Assembly: GCA_009379995.1 (NCBI GenBank)
Contig: WHSR01000009.1
Location: 997 to 64,996 of the forward strand
Length of the DNA stretch: 64,000 nucleotides
Direction of reading: 5' to 3'
DNA from: Streptosporangiales bacterium
GTDB lineage: Bacteria > Actinomycetota > Actinomycetes > Streptosporangiales > WHSR01
Shown: piece after piece, positions 58,906-64,000 of the stretch
Layout: every line of letters begins with the position of its first letter
Position numbering within the stretch: the stretch's first letter is position 1
The notes under the pieces: generated by a model
What the model was told of the DNA's origin: nothing
What the model saw: the letters and a program-made list of their open reading frames with translations, nothing else
The model's database searches: none
Position numbers and translations under genes: made by a program

Positions 58906-60423
58906 ATGGACGCCGATACTCGAGCGAACGGCGGGCAGGGACTCGGCGCACTCTTGGCCCTTTCCTCCCCGCAGGGACGGTGGGTCCTGGGCGCGATGGT
59001 GGCCGGATCGGGGATGGCCTTCCTCGACGGGACTGTGGTCAACGTGGCGCTGCCGGCGATCGGCGAGGAGTTCGGCGCCAGCATGGCCGGCCTGCAGTGG
59101 ATCCTCAACGGGTACATGCTGACGCTGTCCGCGCTGATCCTGTTGAGCGGCGCGCTGGGTGACCGCTACGGAAGGCTGCGGATGTTCCAGGTCGGCGTCG
59201 TGTGGTTCGCCCTCGCGTCCGCACTCTGCGCCCTGGCCGTCAACGTACCCATGCTCGTCCTCGCCCGTATCGCCCAGGGCATCGGCGGCGCGCTGCTGAC
59301 ACCGGGAAGCCTGGCGATCATCGAGGCCACCTTCCGCCAGCAGGACCGGGCCCGGGCGATCGGCGCCTGGTCGGGCCTGACCGGCGTGGCGACGGCGATT
59401 GGACCGTTCGTGGGTGGCTGGCTGATCGACGCCGGGTCGTGGCGGCTGATCTTCGTACTCAACCTGCCGCTCGCGGCCGGCATCGTCGCGATCGGTGCCC
59501 GGCACGTGCCGGAGTCCCGCGATCCCTCGGGCCCGCGGCTCGACGCGGCGGGTGCCCTGCTCGCGGCGACCGGACTCGGCGGCCTCACCTACGCGCTGAT
59601 CACCGCCGGCGAGCGCGGCTTCGGGGCGCCATCGGTGATCGCCGCCGCGGTGGCCGGCGCCGCCGCGCTGGCCGGCTTCGTGACGGTCGAGCGCCGAAGC
59701 TCCCATCCGATGCTGCCGCCGGGCATCTTCTCCTCGTCCCAGTTCACCGCGGCGAACCTGGTGACGGCGGCGGTGTACGCGGGGCTCGGCGCCGTCTTCT
59801 TCCTGCTCGTCGTGCAGCTCCAGCAGGTGCTGGGCTACACGGCGCTGCAGGCCGGCGCGGCCGCGTTGCCCGTCACCCTGCTCATGCTGGCGCTGTCGGC
59901 GCGTTCTGGGGAGCTCGCGCAGCGGATCGGCCCACGCCCACAGATGACTGTCGGCCCGCTTCTGATGGCCGCCGGATTCGTGCTGATGATTCGCATCGGT
60001 CCGGGCGACAGCTACCTGGGCTCGGTGCTGCCGGCGGTGCTCGTACTGGGCCTCGGCCTGGCCACCACGGTGGCGCCGCTGACCGCTACGGTGCTCGCCG
60101 CCGCCGACGAGAGGCACGCCGGCGTGGCGTCCGGGGTGAACAACGCTGTCGCCCGCACCGCCCAGCTCGTCGCCGTCGCGGTCATACCGCTGGCCGCCGG
60201 CATCACCGGGGACGCCTACCGGGACCCGGAGGCCTTCGGGGCCGGCTTCCTCGTGGCGATGCTCATCACGGCCGGGCTGGCGGTCGTCGGCGGCCTGCTG
60301 GCCCTGGCGACGATCCGCCGGCCAGCACTGCATCGCGCCGAGGCCACCCGGCCCCGCCGGGAGCTTCACTGCGCCATGGACGGCCCGCCCCTGGAGGGCT
60401 GCCCCCGGTCATCCGGCCGATGA
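58906..60423 (+). CDS. MFS drug:H+ antiporter, DHA2 (EmrB/QacA, 14-TM) family
   Basis: From ATG 58906: ..FLDGTVVNVALPAIGEEFGAS..WILNGYMLTLSAL..GALGDRYGRLRMF.. Confidence 0.9.
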   Translation: MDADTRANGGQGLGALLALSSPQGRWVLGAMVAGSGMAFLDGTVVNVALPAIGEEFGASMAGLQWILNGYMLTLSALILLSGALGDRYGRLRMFQVGVVWFALASALCALAVNVPMLVLARIAQGIGGALLTPGSLAIIEATFRQQDRARAIGAWSGLTGVATAIGPFVGGWLIDAGSWRLIFVLNLPLAAGIVAIGARHVPESRDPSGPRLDAAGALLAATGLGGLTYALITAGERGFGAPSVIAAAVAGAAALAGFVTVERRSSHPMLPPGIFSSSQFTAANLVTAAVYAGLGAVFFLLVVQLQQVLGYTALQAGAAALPVTLLMLALSARSGELAQRIGPRPQMTVGPLLMAAGFVLMIRIGPGDSYLGSVLPAVLVLGLGLATTVAPLTATVLAAADERHAGVASGVNNAVARTAQLVAVAVIPLAAGITGDAYRDPEAFGAGFLVAMLITAGLAVVGGLLALATIRRPALHRAEATRPRRELHCAMDGPPLEGCPRSSGR

Positions 60424-60615
60424 CTCCGATGAATGGGCCATTCAACAGTAGGCAAGCCCTGTTACCTGTGTAAACAGTAGTTATTGATCTTGCCGGGTAC
60501 GCTGAGGGTGCCCACCGACCCGCTGACCGACGCGCAGCGCGCCATGCCAGGAGTGGCGGACGCGCTGGCGGCGGCAGGGGTCGAGCGCCCGGACCGGAGT
60601 CGAGAAGGTCGCCGG

Positions 60616-60895
60616 TCACCGCTCGTCGTCCTGGCCGGGTAGACGCCGGTAGCGGGCGATTCGCCCGGTCCGCGACCTCGACGACGGGGGTGTCGGGTGA
60701 GAATCGTCGCCAGTTCTTCAGGTCGGGGCCGAGCCGCCATGCGTACCCTTCGGCGGTCACCCAGACGGGCAAGCGATTTTGAAGGGTGACGACGGTCAGC
60801 TCATTCGTGGCGACGACGTGGACGTCGTACCCGCGTGCGGCCAGCTCCTTCGCGAGCGCGTCGGCCGCCGCTTGGTGATCGGTAGCCCACAACAT
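60616..60895 (-). pseudogene. Small hypothetical protein, paralogue of 61836..62261 and 1484..1891, with a probable frame break near 60650-60670
   Basis: MLWATDHQAAADALAKELAARGYDVHVVATNELTVVTLQNRLPVWVTAEGYAWRL..TPVVEVADRA. The annotated frame then runs 130 more low-complexity codons into the MFS gene. The alternative frame ends ..RIARYRRLPGQDDER* at 60616. Confidence 0.45.
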
Positions 60896-60918
60896 GCGCT
60901 CTACTGTCGGGGCAGCGT

Positions 60919-60975
60919 CGCGCTAGCGTGTAGACGTTGAGTGTTGCGCCGACGTTGCGCAGCGAACCTCAACAC
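60919..60975 (-). promoter_or_regulatory. Promoter/operator module A: 29-nt block plus downstream CCTCAACAC half-site
   Basis: 60919-60947 CGCGCTAGCGTGTAGACGTTGAGTGTTGC is 28/29 identical to 62285-62313. Both lie exactly 24 nt from the ATG of a paralogous small gene. Confidence 0.5.
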
Positions 60976-61004
60976 CCGGACGAGGCCCTTGGAACGGTAC
61001 CGCG

Positions 61005-61361
61005 CTAGGTTCGGTCGTCGTCCCAGTCGCGCGGGTCACGGCGCACCACACCGAGCCACCGCACGCCGTTTTCGTCCGGCTCGGTGGGATTGGTCTCCTG
61101 AATGTCTTCGACCAGCAGATAATCCATGTCGGTGTCGCCGAGCTTGAGGCTCGCCGGCGGCGCGGGTGCCTTCCACCTCCAGCCGTACCGCTGGCCGTCG
61201 ATGTCGCGCCACACGAACGACACGACCCGGTTCTCATCGATGGTGACGGATTCCAGCCGCAATCGCGCGAACCAGTTCCACCGGTCGGTGGCGTCGGCAT
61301 AGAAGTCACCGCGTTGCAGGTCGTTCATCCAGAAGGCGAATTCCTCCTCCGGGGCGCTCAT
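61005..61361 (-). CDS. Acidic Trp-rich cytoplasmic protein (118 aa), candidate immunity/partner protein
   Basis: ATG 61361 overlaps the upstream stop (ATGA). MSAPEEEFAFWMNDLQRGDFYADATDRWNWF.. No family recognised. Confidence 0.55.
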   Translation of the reverse strand: MSAPEEEFAFWMNDLQRGDFYADATDRWNWFARLRLESVTIDENRVVSFVWRDIDGQRYGWRWKAPAPPASLKLGDTDMDYLLVEDIQETNPTEPDENGVRWLGVVRRDPRDWDDDRT

Positions 61362-61861
61362 CGCAAGGCTCCCTCCGCGCACTTCGTCCAGCTACTCGTA
61401 TTCACGAGGACGGTCAACAGATTCCCGGTATCGACGTCGACCAGCACCTTGGTGGGGTTACGCTGGCCGGCCAGGCGCAGCGACCACTGGTCCCGCACCG
61501 TCCGGGAGGACACACCGGGCTTGCCGCGTCGGTAGGTGCCTTCGCCGAGAGCACGCCCGATACAATCCATCGCATCATCCCAGCCGCCGATGCCTTTGCG
61601 GCGCAGGTGCCGATACCCCATGCTGTCCTCGTCGCCACACCGCAGCCGCACGATCCCGTGTGCCGTGAACCACGTCTTGACAACGTGGTCCCGATCCTGG
61701 CCGTCGCACGGGTCCTCCGACGCCGACTGACTGCCCCGGTCGCCTCCCTCGCCTCCACCGCCGCCGCCTAACCCGCCGCCGGCCGCCAACGCGAACGCGA
61801 AGAACAGCACCAGGATCGCGATGGGCGCCGAGATGTCATCTTCCTTCTTGGTGGTCGCCAT
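61358..61861 (-). CDS. N-terminally membrane-anchored protein with Gly-rich linker and Cys-containing C-terminal domain (167 aa), candidate exported effector
   Basis: MATTKKEDDISAPIAILVLFFAFALAAGGGLGGGGGGEGG.. then ..RLRCGDEDSMGYRHLRRKGIGGWDDAMDC.. GGAGG RBS inside the upstream gene. Confidence 0.6.
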   Translation of the reverse strand: MATTKKEDDISAPIAILVLFFAFALAAGGGLGGGGGGEGGDRGSQSASEDPCDGQDRDHVVKTWFTAHGIVRLRCGDEDSMGYRHLRRKGIGGWDDAMDCIGRALGEGTYRRGKPGVSSRTVRDQWSLRLAGQRNPTKVLVDVDTGNLLTVLVNTSSWTKCAEGALR

Positions 61862-62261
61862 GACGACCTCCTATGTAGTCACCGCCGATCCGCGCGGACG
61901 CTCGCCTGGTGTCGTGCCACTGTCCGGCCAACACCACGGCCAGCCGCTCGACACCCGCCTCGTCGGTCGGGTAGCGGGTGTAGGTGTCCCAGACGGTGAA
62001 GAACGGCCGGCCGTCCCAATACAGCACCCGGACCCGCGCCCACTCGCCGCCGATGATCAGCGCCGGGATGGTCCGCTCGCTCGGGTCGGATGGCGCGGCG
62101 TTGTCAGTGTGTCGCTTCACCAGGTGCGGCACGCCGAGATCGGCCAGCCTCGCGGACAGCGCCTCCAGCAGCTCCAGCCGACACCGGGCGCGGATGCTCC
62201 ACAGGTCACTACGCTCATCCACCACGCTGGACGAGCACGGCCGCGCGTGCGCGTACACCAT
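61836..62261 (-). CDS. Small hypothetical protein (141 aa), first gene of a three-gene operon, paralogue family member
   Basis: ORF track 61836..62279. ATG 62261 preferred because the motif-to-ATG spacing (24 nt) equals that of module A. Confidence 0.55.
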   Translation of the reverse strand: MVYAHARPCSSSVVDERSDLWSIRARCRLELLEALSARLADLGVPHLVKRHTDNAAPSDPSERTIPALIIGGEWARVRVLYWDGRPFFTVWDTYTRYPTDEAGVERLAVVLAGQWHDTRRASARIGGDYIGGRHGDHQEGR

Positions 62262-62284
62262 GTGATCCACTGTGGACACATGCC

Positions 62285-62343
62285 CGCGCTACCGTGTAGA
62301 CGTTGAGTGTTGCCGGGGCGTTGAGTAACGGCCCTCAACACTC
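62285..62343. promoter_or_regulatory. Promoter/operator module B in the divergent region between the small-gene operon and the XRE regulator
   Basis: 62285-62313 is nearly identical to module A. Contains direct repeats CGTTGAGT (62301, 62319) and the inverted repeat GAGTGTTG (62305-62312) / CAACACTC (62336-62343). Confidence 0.5.
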
Positions 62344-62369
62344 CCGAGCGATAGGTCCTGCGAGCGACG

Positions 62370-63476
62370 GTGTACGCGAGCTTCGGTGACCGGTTACGCG
62401 CGCTGATGTACGAGCGCGGCATCGGCGTGCGCGCACTGGCGCGCAAGGTGCCCTGCGACCCCGGCTACATCTCCCGCCTGCGGAACGGACGGGAGAAACC
62501 GTCCCCCGAACTCGCGCGCCTTCTCGACGACATCCTCAACGCTGGCGGGGAACTCGCCGTGACCCTTCGCACGCACAACGAACGACCCCTGTCAGAAGAG
62601 GTTGATCCTACGAAACGTCGGGATGCCCTGAAGCTGGCACTGGTGGCTCCCCTCGCCCCGGACGCGCTTCGTCGGGTGCTCAGGCAAGCTGCGGCCGAGG
62701 CGATGGAGTTCACGCGCCTGGCCAGTATCTCCGCAGTCGGGCCAGGCACGCTTCAGCACCTTGAGGCCGTAGTCGCCGAACTTGACCGGTCGTATTCCAC
62801 CGAGCCACCCACAGAGCTATTCGCGATCACCCGCGCGTACCGGATACGGGTAGAAGAGCTAGTCCATGGCTCCCACACGCTCAAGGAGGCCCGGGAGCTT
62901 TACGTCTATGCCGGCTGGCTGTCGGAGGTCCTCGCCTGGTTGGCACACGATCTCGGCGATCCGCTGACGGCCGAGGCATTCGCGATCGACTGCCACGAGC
63001 ACGCCCACCAGGCTGGACATGACGAGCTTTGTGCGTGGGCCACCGACGCCATGGCGTCGATCGCGCTGTATACCGGCCAGCCGGAGCGGGCGGTGACGGC
63101 GGCGCACAAGGGCATCGCCCGCGTCCCAGCCTCGCACCCGCTCGCGGTGCGTTTGCGTGCCCAAGCTGGCCGGGCATACGCGCGGCTCGGGCGTCGGGAG
63201 GAGTGCGTCGAGCTTCTTTCGGAGGCGCGGGAGCTGCACGAGCGGCTGCCGGCACGTGCGCCCACCCGGTTCGGCATCGACACTGCAGCCCTAGCCGATT
63301 ACGCCATGACCGCCTACCCTGCATCGGCCTATGTGTGGCTCGGTGAACAAACCGGCAACACCAGGGACTACACCGAGGCCAAGCGATACGCCGAGCACGC
63401 GGTTGCAGTACATGAGAGAGCGCCGGCGGCGGCACGCTCTCCGTCTCGATCGGGGCCGCTTCCTTCGAGGTGTTGA
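62370..63476 (+). CDS. XRE-family HTH + TPR-like regulator, apparently 3'-truncated
   Basis: (GTG) MYASFGDRLRALMYERGIGVRALARKVPCDPGYISRLRNGREKPSPELARLL.. Same architecture as 2063..3479 but about 100 aa shorter, ending in non-homologous ..RSPSRSGPLPSRC*. Confidence 0.75.
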   Translation: MYASFGDRLRALMYERGIGVRALARKVPCDPGYISRLRNGREKPSPELARLLDDILNAGGELAVTLRTHNERPLSEEVDPTKRRDALKLALVAPLAPDALRRVLRQAAAEAMEFTRLASISAVGPGTLQHLEAVVAELDRSYSTEPPTELFAITRAYRIRVEELVHGSHTLKEARELYVYAGWLSEVLAWLAHDLGDPLTAEAFAIDCHEHAHQAGHDELCAWATDAMASIALYTGQPERAVTAAHKGIARVPASHPLAVRLRAQAGRAYARLGRREECVELLSEARELHERLPARAPTRFGIDTAALADYAMTAYPASAYVWLGEQTGNTRDYTEAKRYAEHAVAVHERAPAAARSPSRSGPLPSRC

Positions 63477-63479
63477 CGA

Positions 63480-64000
63480 TCTCCAGCTTCGCGGTCACCC
63501 ATACTCCGTTCGCGGACTCCACCTGGTACGTGGTGCCGTCGCTGTACTCGCTGGCGACGGTGTCGGAGACCTCAACGTCCGACAGAGTCACACGGAGCCC
63601 GTTGTAGGTGAACGTCTCGCCCACCCGCGCGGTGGTAATTGCCGGGGTCGGCTCGACGGCGGCGTCGCCGGTCAGCGCCCCGGGGTCGGACGATCCCATC
63701 ATCTCGGCGATCGATAGGATCTGCACGCCGTGGTTGTCGCACGCGCCGGCCAGCTCGCTGTAGGTCTGGGTGACGGTGCCGATCATCGCGAACGCCGCCA
63801 TGGGATCGGTCTCGACGATCTTCGTCGTCTGCCAGGCGGCATCCATGAATGCCGTCCCGGCGTCCTTGATGTCGTCGTGGCGGGACTTCTGGAAGAGACC
63901 GCGGGCTTCCCCGGTACTCCTGCTTGGTGATCGGCTTGTCGGCGTTGGCGTTCTCTTTCGCGTCGGCTGCCAGCGCCTTGCAGGCCGTGATCCCCGCGTC
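63480..64000 (-). pseudogene. DUF4352-like extracellular domain protein, running off the window. Frame break near 63909-63912 and truncated 3' end.
   Basis: ..RVGETFTYNGLRVTLSDVEVSDTVASEYSDGTTYQVESANGVWVTAKLEIVNTSKEAAP.. Upstream coding sequence (..DAGITACKALAADAKENANADKPITKQEY) is in another frame. The domain stops where it meets the XRE gene. Confidence 0.5.

Follow-up and report, generated by a model that had tools for sequence, protein, structure and literature searches.

The locus and its genes

The window, by which we mean the whole 64-kb stretch of DNA analysed here, comes from the MAG of an uncultured Streptosporangiales bacterium (locus tags GEV03_). It carries four small minus-strand genes, which we call ORF A to ORF D, a regulator gene on the opposite strand, and two copies of a module that lies outside the coding sequences:

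60650..60895, minus strand: ORF A, with coding-like codon-position GC over about 82 codons
60889..60975, minus strand: module copy 1, between the ORF B stop codon (61005-61007) and the ORF A ATG (60895)
61005-61361, minus strand: ORF B, which overlaps the start/stop of the neighbouring gene
61358-61861, minus strand: ORF C, with an N-terminal hydrophobic segment and a Gly-rich linker
61836..62261, minus strand: ORF D, 141 aa, identical to NCBI GEV03_05500, first gene of the D-C-B operon
62255..62341, minus strand: module copy 2, filling most of the 108-nt divergent gap between the ORF D ATG (62261) and the XRE GTG (62370)
62370..63476, plus strand: XRE-type HTH (HTH_31) and TPR regulator of the NsdA family, GTG start, 368 aa

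Codon-position GC confirms all four minus-strand genes, and since the starts and stops of ORF D, ORF C and ORF B overlap, these three form a co-transcribed operon. ORF D matches no Pfam, NCBIfam or PHROG family. It has four relatives, one of them a 77% identical paralogue on the same contig (GEV03_05530), which lies six genes off and outside the window. For ORF A the frame stays open as far as 60266, across an AT-rich spacer and into the 3' end of an MFS gene. A word-indexed search with ORF A returned no match, and because it missed even ORF A itself, we infer that the gene is absent from the NCBI annotation. An exhaustive phmmer search recovered two small homologues of 105-115 aa (P0127, E=2e-5; P0129, E=5e-4). 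Given these two genuine relatives, ORF A is probably a real gene whose 3' end is damaged.

The preliminary description took the two genes preceded by the module, ORF A and ORF D, to be paralogues, a relationship that our comparisons do not establish. BLASTP finds no similarity between them, and alignment of their family profiles (hhalign) reaches E=0.05 at best, over 68 co-linear columns. What the AF2 models have in common (pLDDT 78.7 for ORF A and 76.3 for ORF D) is the order of predicted secondary structure, a helix, four to five strands and a helix; the predicted fold of ORF D is alpha-beta4-alpha, and neither model has a fold match in the PDB. From the profiles and the models, remote paralogy is possible.

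The regulator scores 107.9 bits against NCBIfam model NF053720 (cut-off 75) over residues 3-357, and 28 against the cut-off of 830 of the NsdA equivalog model. Its PDB matches span the HTH domain alone. The C-terminus is about 80 residues short: homologues are 415-460 aa long, and the alignment with one of them, P0020, stops at 336/418. The convergent DUF4352 gene, which abuts the regulator gene at about 63441-63450, is truncated as well. With its regulator gene truncated, the system is possibly decaying.

NsdA-family regulators influence actinomycete development and antibiotic production. A study of NsdA gives ChIP-based in vivo binding sites, and the word 'motif' is absent from its main text (PMC12243394); no published operator motif for the family was found in that text. 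We considered a prophage lysogeny switch and rejected it: a tblastn search of 50,697 phage records for relatives of the regulator gave no match, and an XRE-family profile search of IMG/VR yielded no confirmed relative.

The module is a bounded non-coding unit

The two module copies have the same orientation and form an ungapped direct repeat whose units, 60889-60975 and 62255-62341, lie 1366 bp apart; 65 of the 87 nt are identical (75%) and there are zero indels. Within it lies the 29-nt block that was the core of the preliminary description, and its coordinates hold: 60919-60947 and 62285-62313 agree at 28/29 positions, and each block lies 24 nt from the ATG of its minus-strand gene (60895 and 62261). 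The 20-mer GTGTAGACGTTGAGTGTTGC has exactly two matches in the 64 kb with 3 mismatches tolerated, and matched in 0/100 shuffles. The window contains no third copy of the module that would extend the proposed regulon.

Conservation within the module is island-like. Besides the block, a second site at the far end, GTGTTGAGG (site A below), is identical at 9/9 positions, the 19-nt spacer between them agrees at 10/19, and the stretch between block and ATG at 12/23. This last value is close to the identity of about 55%, around a common ACTGT, that had been reported for the 23-nt leaders. Outside block and site A the remainder amounts to 28/49, and the block differs from all other module positions with p=0.0006 (Fisher).

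Similarity between the copies stops a few bases from the ATG on one side and at the GTGTTGAGG site on the other. Beyond these limits, local alignment of the flanks gives scores of 11 on the CDS side (mean of dinucleotide shuffles 12.2) and 9 on the XRE side (mean 8.2). Since the flanks align no better than shuffled sequence, the possibility raised at the outset, that the similarity reflects a recent segmental duplication including the coding sequence, fails; BLASTP of the two proteins, as noted, agrees. The 87-nt module is a bounded non-coding unit rather than a duplication that carries coding sequence with it.

The two copies differ in their setting. Copy 2 adjoins the divergent HTH_31 gene and occupies its intergenic region, as had been assumed when an adjacent XRE protein was proposed; copy 1 has no adjacent regulator gene. 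Three further ideas were discarded. The XRE-side flank of copy 1 matches the start of the XRE gene at 11/13 positions, which is not significant for homology. The small-peptide or antisense ORFs inside the module are only out-of-frame extensions of GC-rich spurious ORFs. Recombination sites of the attL/attR or cassette type were rejected for want of a recombinase in or beside the 1.37-kb unit and of any tRNA gene in the window. A repeat search of four homologous loci found no second copy of their own intergenic regions in any of them; duplication of the module is thus not general for this type of locus.

A third copy on another contig

An HMM built from the two window copies found one more instance, at positions 370-459 of contig L001 (E=1.7e-10), an unrelated 2.5-kb metagenome contig chosen for its ORF D homologue (69% identical). 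There the module is bordered on one side by the N-terminal part of an XRE homologue (57% identical) and on the other by an operon, in which a 22-codon ORF that begins with the conserved ATG is followed by two Methyltransf_19 genes and, last, the ORF D homologue. The ATG has kept its distance from the module though just a 22-codon ORF follows it. The module has thus been kept while the flanking proteins diverged to 57-69% identity or lost any recognisable relation, and its recurrence beside an XRE homologue on another contig, together with its boundaries and its island-like conservation, supports the idea of a duplicated regulatory cassette. The L001 context matches that of copy 2, and copy 2 is therefore the native copy and copy 1 the displaced one.

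When all three copies are aligned, 53 of 86 columns show no variation. Copy 1 and copy 2 are 75% identical, and each is 70% identical to L001; these distances show that copy 1 did not arise recently as a neutral duplicate of copy 2. That copy 1 stands about as far from copy 2 as from L001 also suits another history, in which it would be the non-functional relic of a second, related XRE and small-gene unit, which recombination or deletion would have fused to the present one in a decaying variable island; common descent alone would then explain why it resembles copy 2. The truncated XRE and DUF4352 genes show regional decay, the coding signal of ORF A ends after about 82 codons, one of the copy 1 half-sites described below is degenerate (CGCAAC), and the further ORF D paralogue lies six genes away. 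Neutral decay would hardly leave a block at 28/29 and a site A at 9/9 beside about 57% elsewhere (the p=0.0006 above), nor zero indels across 87 nt, and in copy 1 both the ATG and a -10-like hexamer stand in register before an ORF that has real homologues. We therefore give the relic little credence.

The module belongs to no described family. Exact-word scans with AACACTCAACGTCTACAC (genome and metagenome contigs) and CACTCAACGTCTACAC (IMG/VR) returned 12, 14 and 11 matches, all in random flanks, and many of these recur within near-identical, unrelated flanking sequence. Rfam places no family on the module; it gave three chance-level miRNA matches (E>3), all elsewhere.

An array of three half-sites

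Aligned on the start codon, with positions counted from the A of the ATG on the minus strand, the three copies share a set of short elements, for which we give the window coordinates:

60903..60908, minus strand: -10-like hexamer GACAGT of copy 1, 7 nt upstream of the ATG; in copy 2 CACAGT, 62269-62274
60919..60947, minus strand: 29-nt block of copy 1, -24 to -52 from the ATG, containing half-site C and the core; in copy 2 62285-62313
60928-60939, minus strand: core CAACGTCTACAC of copy 1, -44 to -33, invariant in 3/3 known copies
60936..60941, minus strand: half-site C (CTCAAC) of copy 1, 18 bp downstream of B; in copy 2 62302-62307
60949..60979, minus strand: inverted repeat A/B of copy 1, CCGGGTGTTGAG-N8-CGCAACGTCGG, hexamer A at 60968-60973 and B at 60954-60959
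62315..62345, minus strand: inverted repeat A/B of copy 2, GGGAGTGTTGAG-N8-CTCAACGCCCC, hexamer A at 62334-62339 and B at 62320-62325

Site A, GTGTTGAGG, occupies -80 to -72. Site B is CTCAAC at -64 to -59 (degenerate CGCAAC in copy 1), and site C is CTCAAC at -46 to -41; TAGCGCG follows at -30 to -24 and nACAKT at -13 to -8. The half-site consensus is ACYCAACG. A and B form an 8-N8-8 palindrome centred about 68 bp upstream of the ATG, C lies near -43, and the direct repeat from B to C has a spacing of 18 bp in the window and 17 bp in L001. All three sites are present in 3/3 copies, the A/B arms matching at 8/11, 10/11 and 10/10 positions; with its flanks the A/B repeat reaches 11 pairs around the 8-nt spacer.

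The preliminary description had seen one of these sites, as a half-site following the block and able to pair with it. The element is there: CCTCAACAC is found at 60967-60975 and 62333-62341. Its exact complement is absent from the block, which offers only the 6-bp registers GTTGAG or GTGTTG, and a better partner for site A is site B, which lies between A and the block (CTCAAC at 62320-62325, CGCAAC at 60954-60959). What had been described as a pairing half-site is one member of a three-site array in which A is inverted and B and C are direct repeats. Such an array reads better as a set of operators than as a hairpin, to judge from its layout and from the way in which the sites change. In the window the hexamer at A, B and C is GTTGAG/CTCAAC; at all three L001 sites it is GTTGGG/CCCAAC. 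Direct repeats such as B and C cannot pair with each other, so their joint change fits recognition by one protein.

The main rival reading is that the conserved inverted repeat is a nucleic-acid hairpin and no protein site at all. It would be a stem-loop in the 5' UTR of the XRE mRNA in copy 2 and L001, and in copy 1 a terminator or insulator lacking a U-tract that ends the D-C-B operon, while site C could serve as an alternative pairing partner of A. A is complementary to B in 95% of cells and to C in 100%. RNAalifold on the three copies gives an 11-pair stem with an 8-nt loop in each, with double-sided changes at three pairs (columns 19-49, 20-48 and 29-40). The outer three positions of the A/B arms read CCG...CGG in copy 1 and GGG...CCC in copy 2, so that two copies in one genome differ and yet remain complementary, which at those positions favours base pairing over protein recognition. 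The copy 1 repeat begins 26 nt past the ORF B stop codon, a typical position for a terminator, and copy 2 folds with z=-2.7.

Other observations count against the hairpin. The single-sequence folds of the window copies differ in their pairings, and copy 1 reaches only z=-0.75. Covariation across the three sequences falls short of significance: 171 and 169 of 500 shuffles score at least as high. Quasi-palindrome correction keeps the arms of an inverted repeat symmetrical without selection for pairing, and could account for the symmetric arms here. The intrinsic terminator scan is empty and the stem has no T-run behind it; upstream of copy 2 and of the L001 module neither strand has a gene to terminate; Rfam lacks a match; and B and C change jointly though they would never be paired. 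We regard the hairpin as unlikely, though it deserves to be taken seriously, and return to the operator reading below.

Candidate promoter elements and the start codon

The hexamer nACAKT precedes the ATG by 7 nt in copy 1 (GACAGT), copy 2 (CACAGT) and L001 (GACATT), and by 6 nt in the homologous locus L042 (AACAGT). None of these four carries a Shine-Dalgarno sequence; the loci L040, L045 and L046, with 35-55-nt leaders, do. Actinobacterial leaderless promoters have TANNNT about 7 nt before the start codon, as start-site maps of Mycobacterium and Streptomyces show. nACAKT retains A2 and T6, the two most conserved positions of the actinobacterial -10 element, and has G, C or A in place of T1. 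A consensus sigma-70 scan reported no promoter, and there is no canonical -35 at 16-19 nt from the -10-like hexamer. All five matches of a leader-motif scan of IMG/VR were unrelated.

The common ACTGT of the presumed leaders corresponds to this hexamer, so the shared motif stands and its interpretation changes: because the hexamer keeps a fixed distance from the ATG and no Shine-Dalgarno sequence is present, we read the 23 nt as a -10/core promoter region. As judged from these sequence features, they are more likely the core promoter of a leaderless mRNA than a leader, and under this reading the 29-nt block would comprise the -35 region together with site C.

The same sequence can be parsed differently. 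ECF-type sigma factors generally recognise AAC at -35 and CGT at -10 with 16-17-nt spacing, and CAAC-N17-CGTCTA has exact matches at copy 1 and copy 2 but at no other place in the window, with CAAC-N16-CGTCTA in L001. The core of the module could on this match be an ECF-type promoter, with its -35 in the CAAC of site B, its -10 at CGTCTA inside the invariant core and a leader of about 29 nt, the block being conserved as promoter spacer and -10. The general pattern and its spacing fit, but promoters do not usually conserve their spacer better than their -35, as this one would; a leader of about 29 nt would lack a Shine-Dalgarno sequence; and the conserved nACAKT at its fixed distance from the ATG would go unexplained. 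The arrangement is not kept in L042, L040 or L046, and when the window was translated in six frames and scanned with a crude regular expression for regions 2/4.2, a weak test, no gene for an ECF sigma factor turned up. An ECF promoter appears distinctly improbable to us.

A proposed operator and leaderless promoter

We come back to the reading in which the module combines an operator with a leaderless-mRNA promoter under the control of the adjacent HTH-TPR regulator of the NsdA family, a proposal for and against which we see the chances as about equal. The regulator would bind half-sites A, B and C and through them control the small-gene promoter, in whichever direction. The core CAACGTCTACAC would span the -35 region, with site C abutting the small-gene -35, and nACAKT as the -10 would place the 5' end of the mRNA at or next to the start codon. 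In copy 2 the A/B palindrome occupies the stretch 25-55 nt before the XRE gene's own start codon, a position that suggests autoregulation, and through it the regulator may control its own expression. Copy 2 would then be the native divergent promoter-operator region. Copy 1, the module alone at the distal end of the operon, would provide ORF A with a regulator-dependent leaderless start of its own.

The loci of regulator homologues share a layout. In Actinomadura, Actinoallomurus, Sphaerisporangium and Pseudonocardiaceae the homologue has an ASCH-domain gene downstream, and several small genes in a row run divergently from it; recombinases, transposases, toxin-antitoxin or CBASS genes lie near these loci, neighbours that point to variable islands rather than phages. 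At the equivalent place related loci, whose regulators differ, have repeats of their own: L042 carries two copies of TGTTGAC and L045 three of TGATGAC, while a perfect 22-bp palindrome surrounds GTTGCGCAAC in L040. Across the equivalent intergenic regions of five XRE-homologue loci GTTG/CAAC occurs 16 times where 4.3 are expected, a figure uncorrected for the lower-GC base composition of intergenic regions. The recognition helix differs together with the half-sites, reading GYISRLRNGRE in the window regulator and GHLSHICAGRD in the XRE homologue of L001.

A bolder version of the proposal makes the module a portable, self-contained cassette (a palindrome serving as insulator or operator, a promoter that depends on the regulator, and a leaderless ATG) that would be placed before unrelated genes in variable islands of Streptosporangiales, its half-sites co-evolving with the recognition helix of the regulator. 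We consider this a long shot. If it were true, the module would hold the first defined operator of the NsdA family, with a specificity re-programmed by one base per half-site. Short of that, the locus offers a candidate operator for the family, an 8-N8-8 palindrome of ACYCAACG half-sites together with the third site, and what may be a natural specificity variant, CTCAAC as against CCCAAC, paired with differing recognition helices. It is also a small, clean case of a putative promoter-operator-ATG unit reused within an operon independently of the coding sequence that follows. In other respects we take it for an ordinary cis-regulatory element, specific to its lineage and set in an island that has partly decayed.

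Comparison with known systems

In its domain order the regulator recalls the RNPP/AimR-type regulators of Firmicutes and phages, in which an HTH is likewise followed by TPR repeats and which likewise occur in variable or mobile contexts. No sequence relationship to these was detected and no candidate peptide gene was identified here, and the relatives of our regulator have the ASCH-domain gene as their conserved downstream partner. Its assignment to the NsdA family (NF053720, from Streptomyces) rests on the score above the cut-off given earlier; it differs from that family in its clear N-terminal HTH_31 and its truncated C-terminus. The predicted promoter elements resemble actinobacterial leaderless promoters at four loci, with A2 and T6 of the hexamer 7 nt before the ATG (6 nt in L042) and no Shine-Dalgarno sequence; the difference is the first T, which is replaced here.

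The operators of Cro/CI-type (XRE) repressors, such as lambda OR and those of 434 and P22, offer a parallel in layout. There, as here, an HTH gene is divergent from its target genes (presumed targets in our case), several related half-sites including an inverted repeat fill an intergenic region of about 100 bp, and the sites of relatives differ in sequence, as they do between immunity groups. Our regulator departs from that type in its TPR domain and NsdA family membership, and no phage relative of it was found; the first divergent gene does not encode a Cro-like HTH protein, and the candidate sites lie upstream of the -35 and not over the small-gene core promoter. Lastly, copy 1 resembles the stoperators of mycobacteriophage L5 in being a putative repressor site that recurs within a transcription unit, where it occupies a short intergenic gap and faces one way relative to transcription. 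An L5-type stoperator is a single asymmetric site of 13 bp and occurs dozens of times, whereas what is repeated here, once and in a non-phage context, is a whole 87-nt unit of putative promoter, operator and ATG.

Sequence contexts of the ORF D family

Outside the window, a paralogue of ORF D, GEV03_05530 (77% identical), is encoded six locus tags away on the same contig, past position 64000. The stretch around the two genes may constitute an array of related regulator-plus-small-gene units. Family members also occur behind other upstream sequences. At L002:470-590, the locus of another ORF D homologue (77% identical), the upstream region is unrelated and carries two perfect palindromes, GGAACACGC...GCGTGTTCC and TCACTGATCAGTGA, which argues that the ORF D family is wired to different regulators depending on context.

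In the metagenome contig L001, which carries a third copy of the 87-nt module, the module's conserved ATG (region L001:454-1646) opens an ORF of only 22 codons (MMYVIGDDAAATLAATAPTTEF), and two Methyltransf_19 genes separate this ORF from the ORF D homologue, the N-terminus of which differs. This arrangement suggests that an ancestral first gene was interrupted, immediately after its start, by insertion of the methyltransferase genes.

Small genes downstream of the module

Reading from its ATG at 60895, the ORF A frame (60266-60895, minus strand) runs for 209 codons without a stop, crossing an AT-rich spacer and then overlapping the MFS transporter gene by 158 nt at its 3' end. The coding-type GC3 signal ends near 60650, and across 60500-60640 the periodicity matches a plus-strand ORF (60484-60642) instead of ORF A. 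ORF A is probably 3'-truncated or frameshifted. Its best phmmer matches (P0125, P0126 and P0128) are long tandem-repeat proteins in which five to nine short stretches are matched, and they appear to reflect biased composition or repeats instead of homology.

The spacer itself (60424-60500), which follows the MFS transporter gene, is strongly AT-rich and contains AACAGTAG twice. From this point to the end of the window the GC content drops from approximately 0.73-0.76 to 0.65-0.69, and a variable island may begin here. The whole window is free of tRNA genes.

ORF B and ORF C lie in the following region:

61005-61861, minus strand: ORF B and ORF C, the latter carrying a hydrophobic segment at its N-terminus, plus a Gly-rich linker and a domain that contains Cys

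The sole family match of ORF B is DUF5768, below threshold; none was found for ORF C. Overlap of their starts and stops suggests a co-translated pair, possibly toxin and immunity.

The XRE/NsdA-family gene and its relatives

On the plus strand, homology of the XRE/NsdA-family gene to its relatives ends at approximately residue 360, near 63450. Convergent with it, a DUF4352-like gene runs on the minus strand from 63846, and its domain breaks off at approximately 63441. Two truncated genes thus adjoin at 63430-63460. The junction reflects either a deletion that took with it the ASCH gene seen in relatives 3' of the XRE gene, or an assembly chimera in the MAG.

In the relatives' loci (L040, L041, L042 and L043/L044), an ASCH-domain (PF04266) gene lies directly 3' of each HTH-TPR regulator homologue. 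Among the neighbouring genes are those for a serine recombinase, an integrase-like protein and transposases, and PIN/RHH and DUF4160/DUF2442 pairs; L041 additionally has a CBASS pair of CD-NTase and Cap15. L040, L042 and L045 each have their own repeat in the XRE-proximal part of the equivalent intergenic region:

Intergenic repeats at loci of XRE homologues
L040:3853-4000, perfect 22-bp palindrome CCAGGGGTTGCGCAACCCCTGG
L042:3903-4000, TGTTGAC twice, 11-nt spacing
L045:3604-3733, TGATGAC three times

In L040, L042 and L046, the first divergent gene belongs to a family of 85-93 aa (ALExLAAxL...PTLRIVNR...WFWW), which gives a weak co-linear alignment with ORF A (E=0.16).
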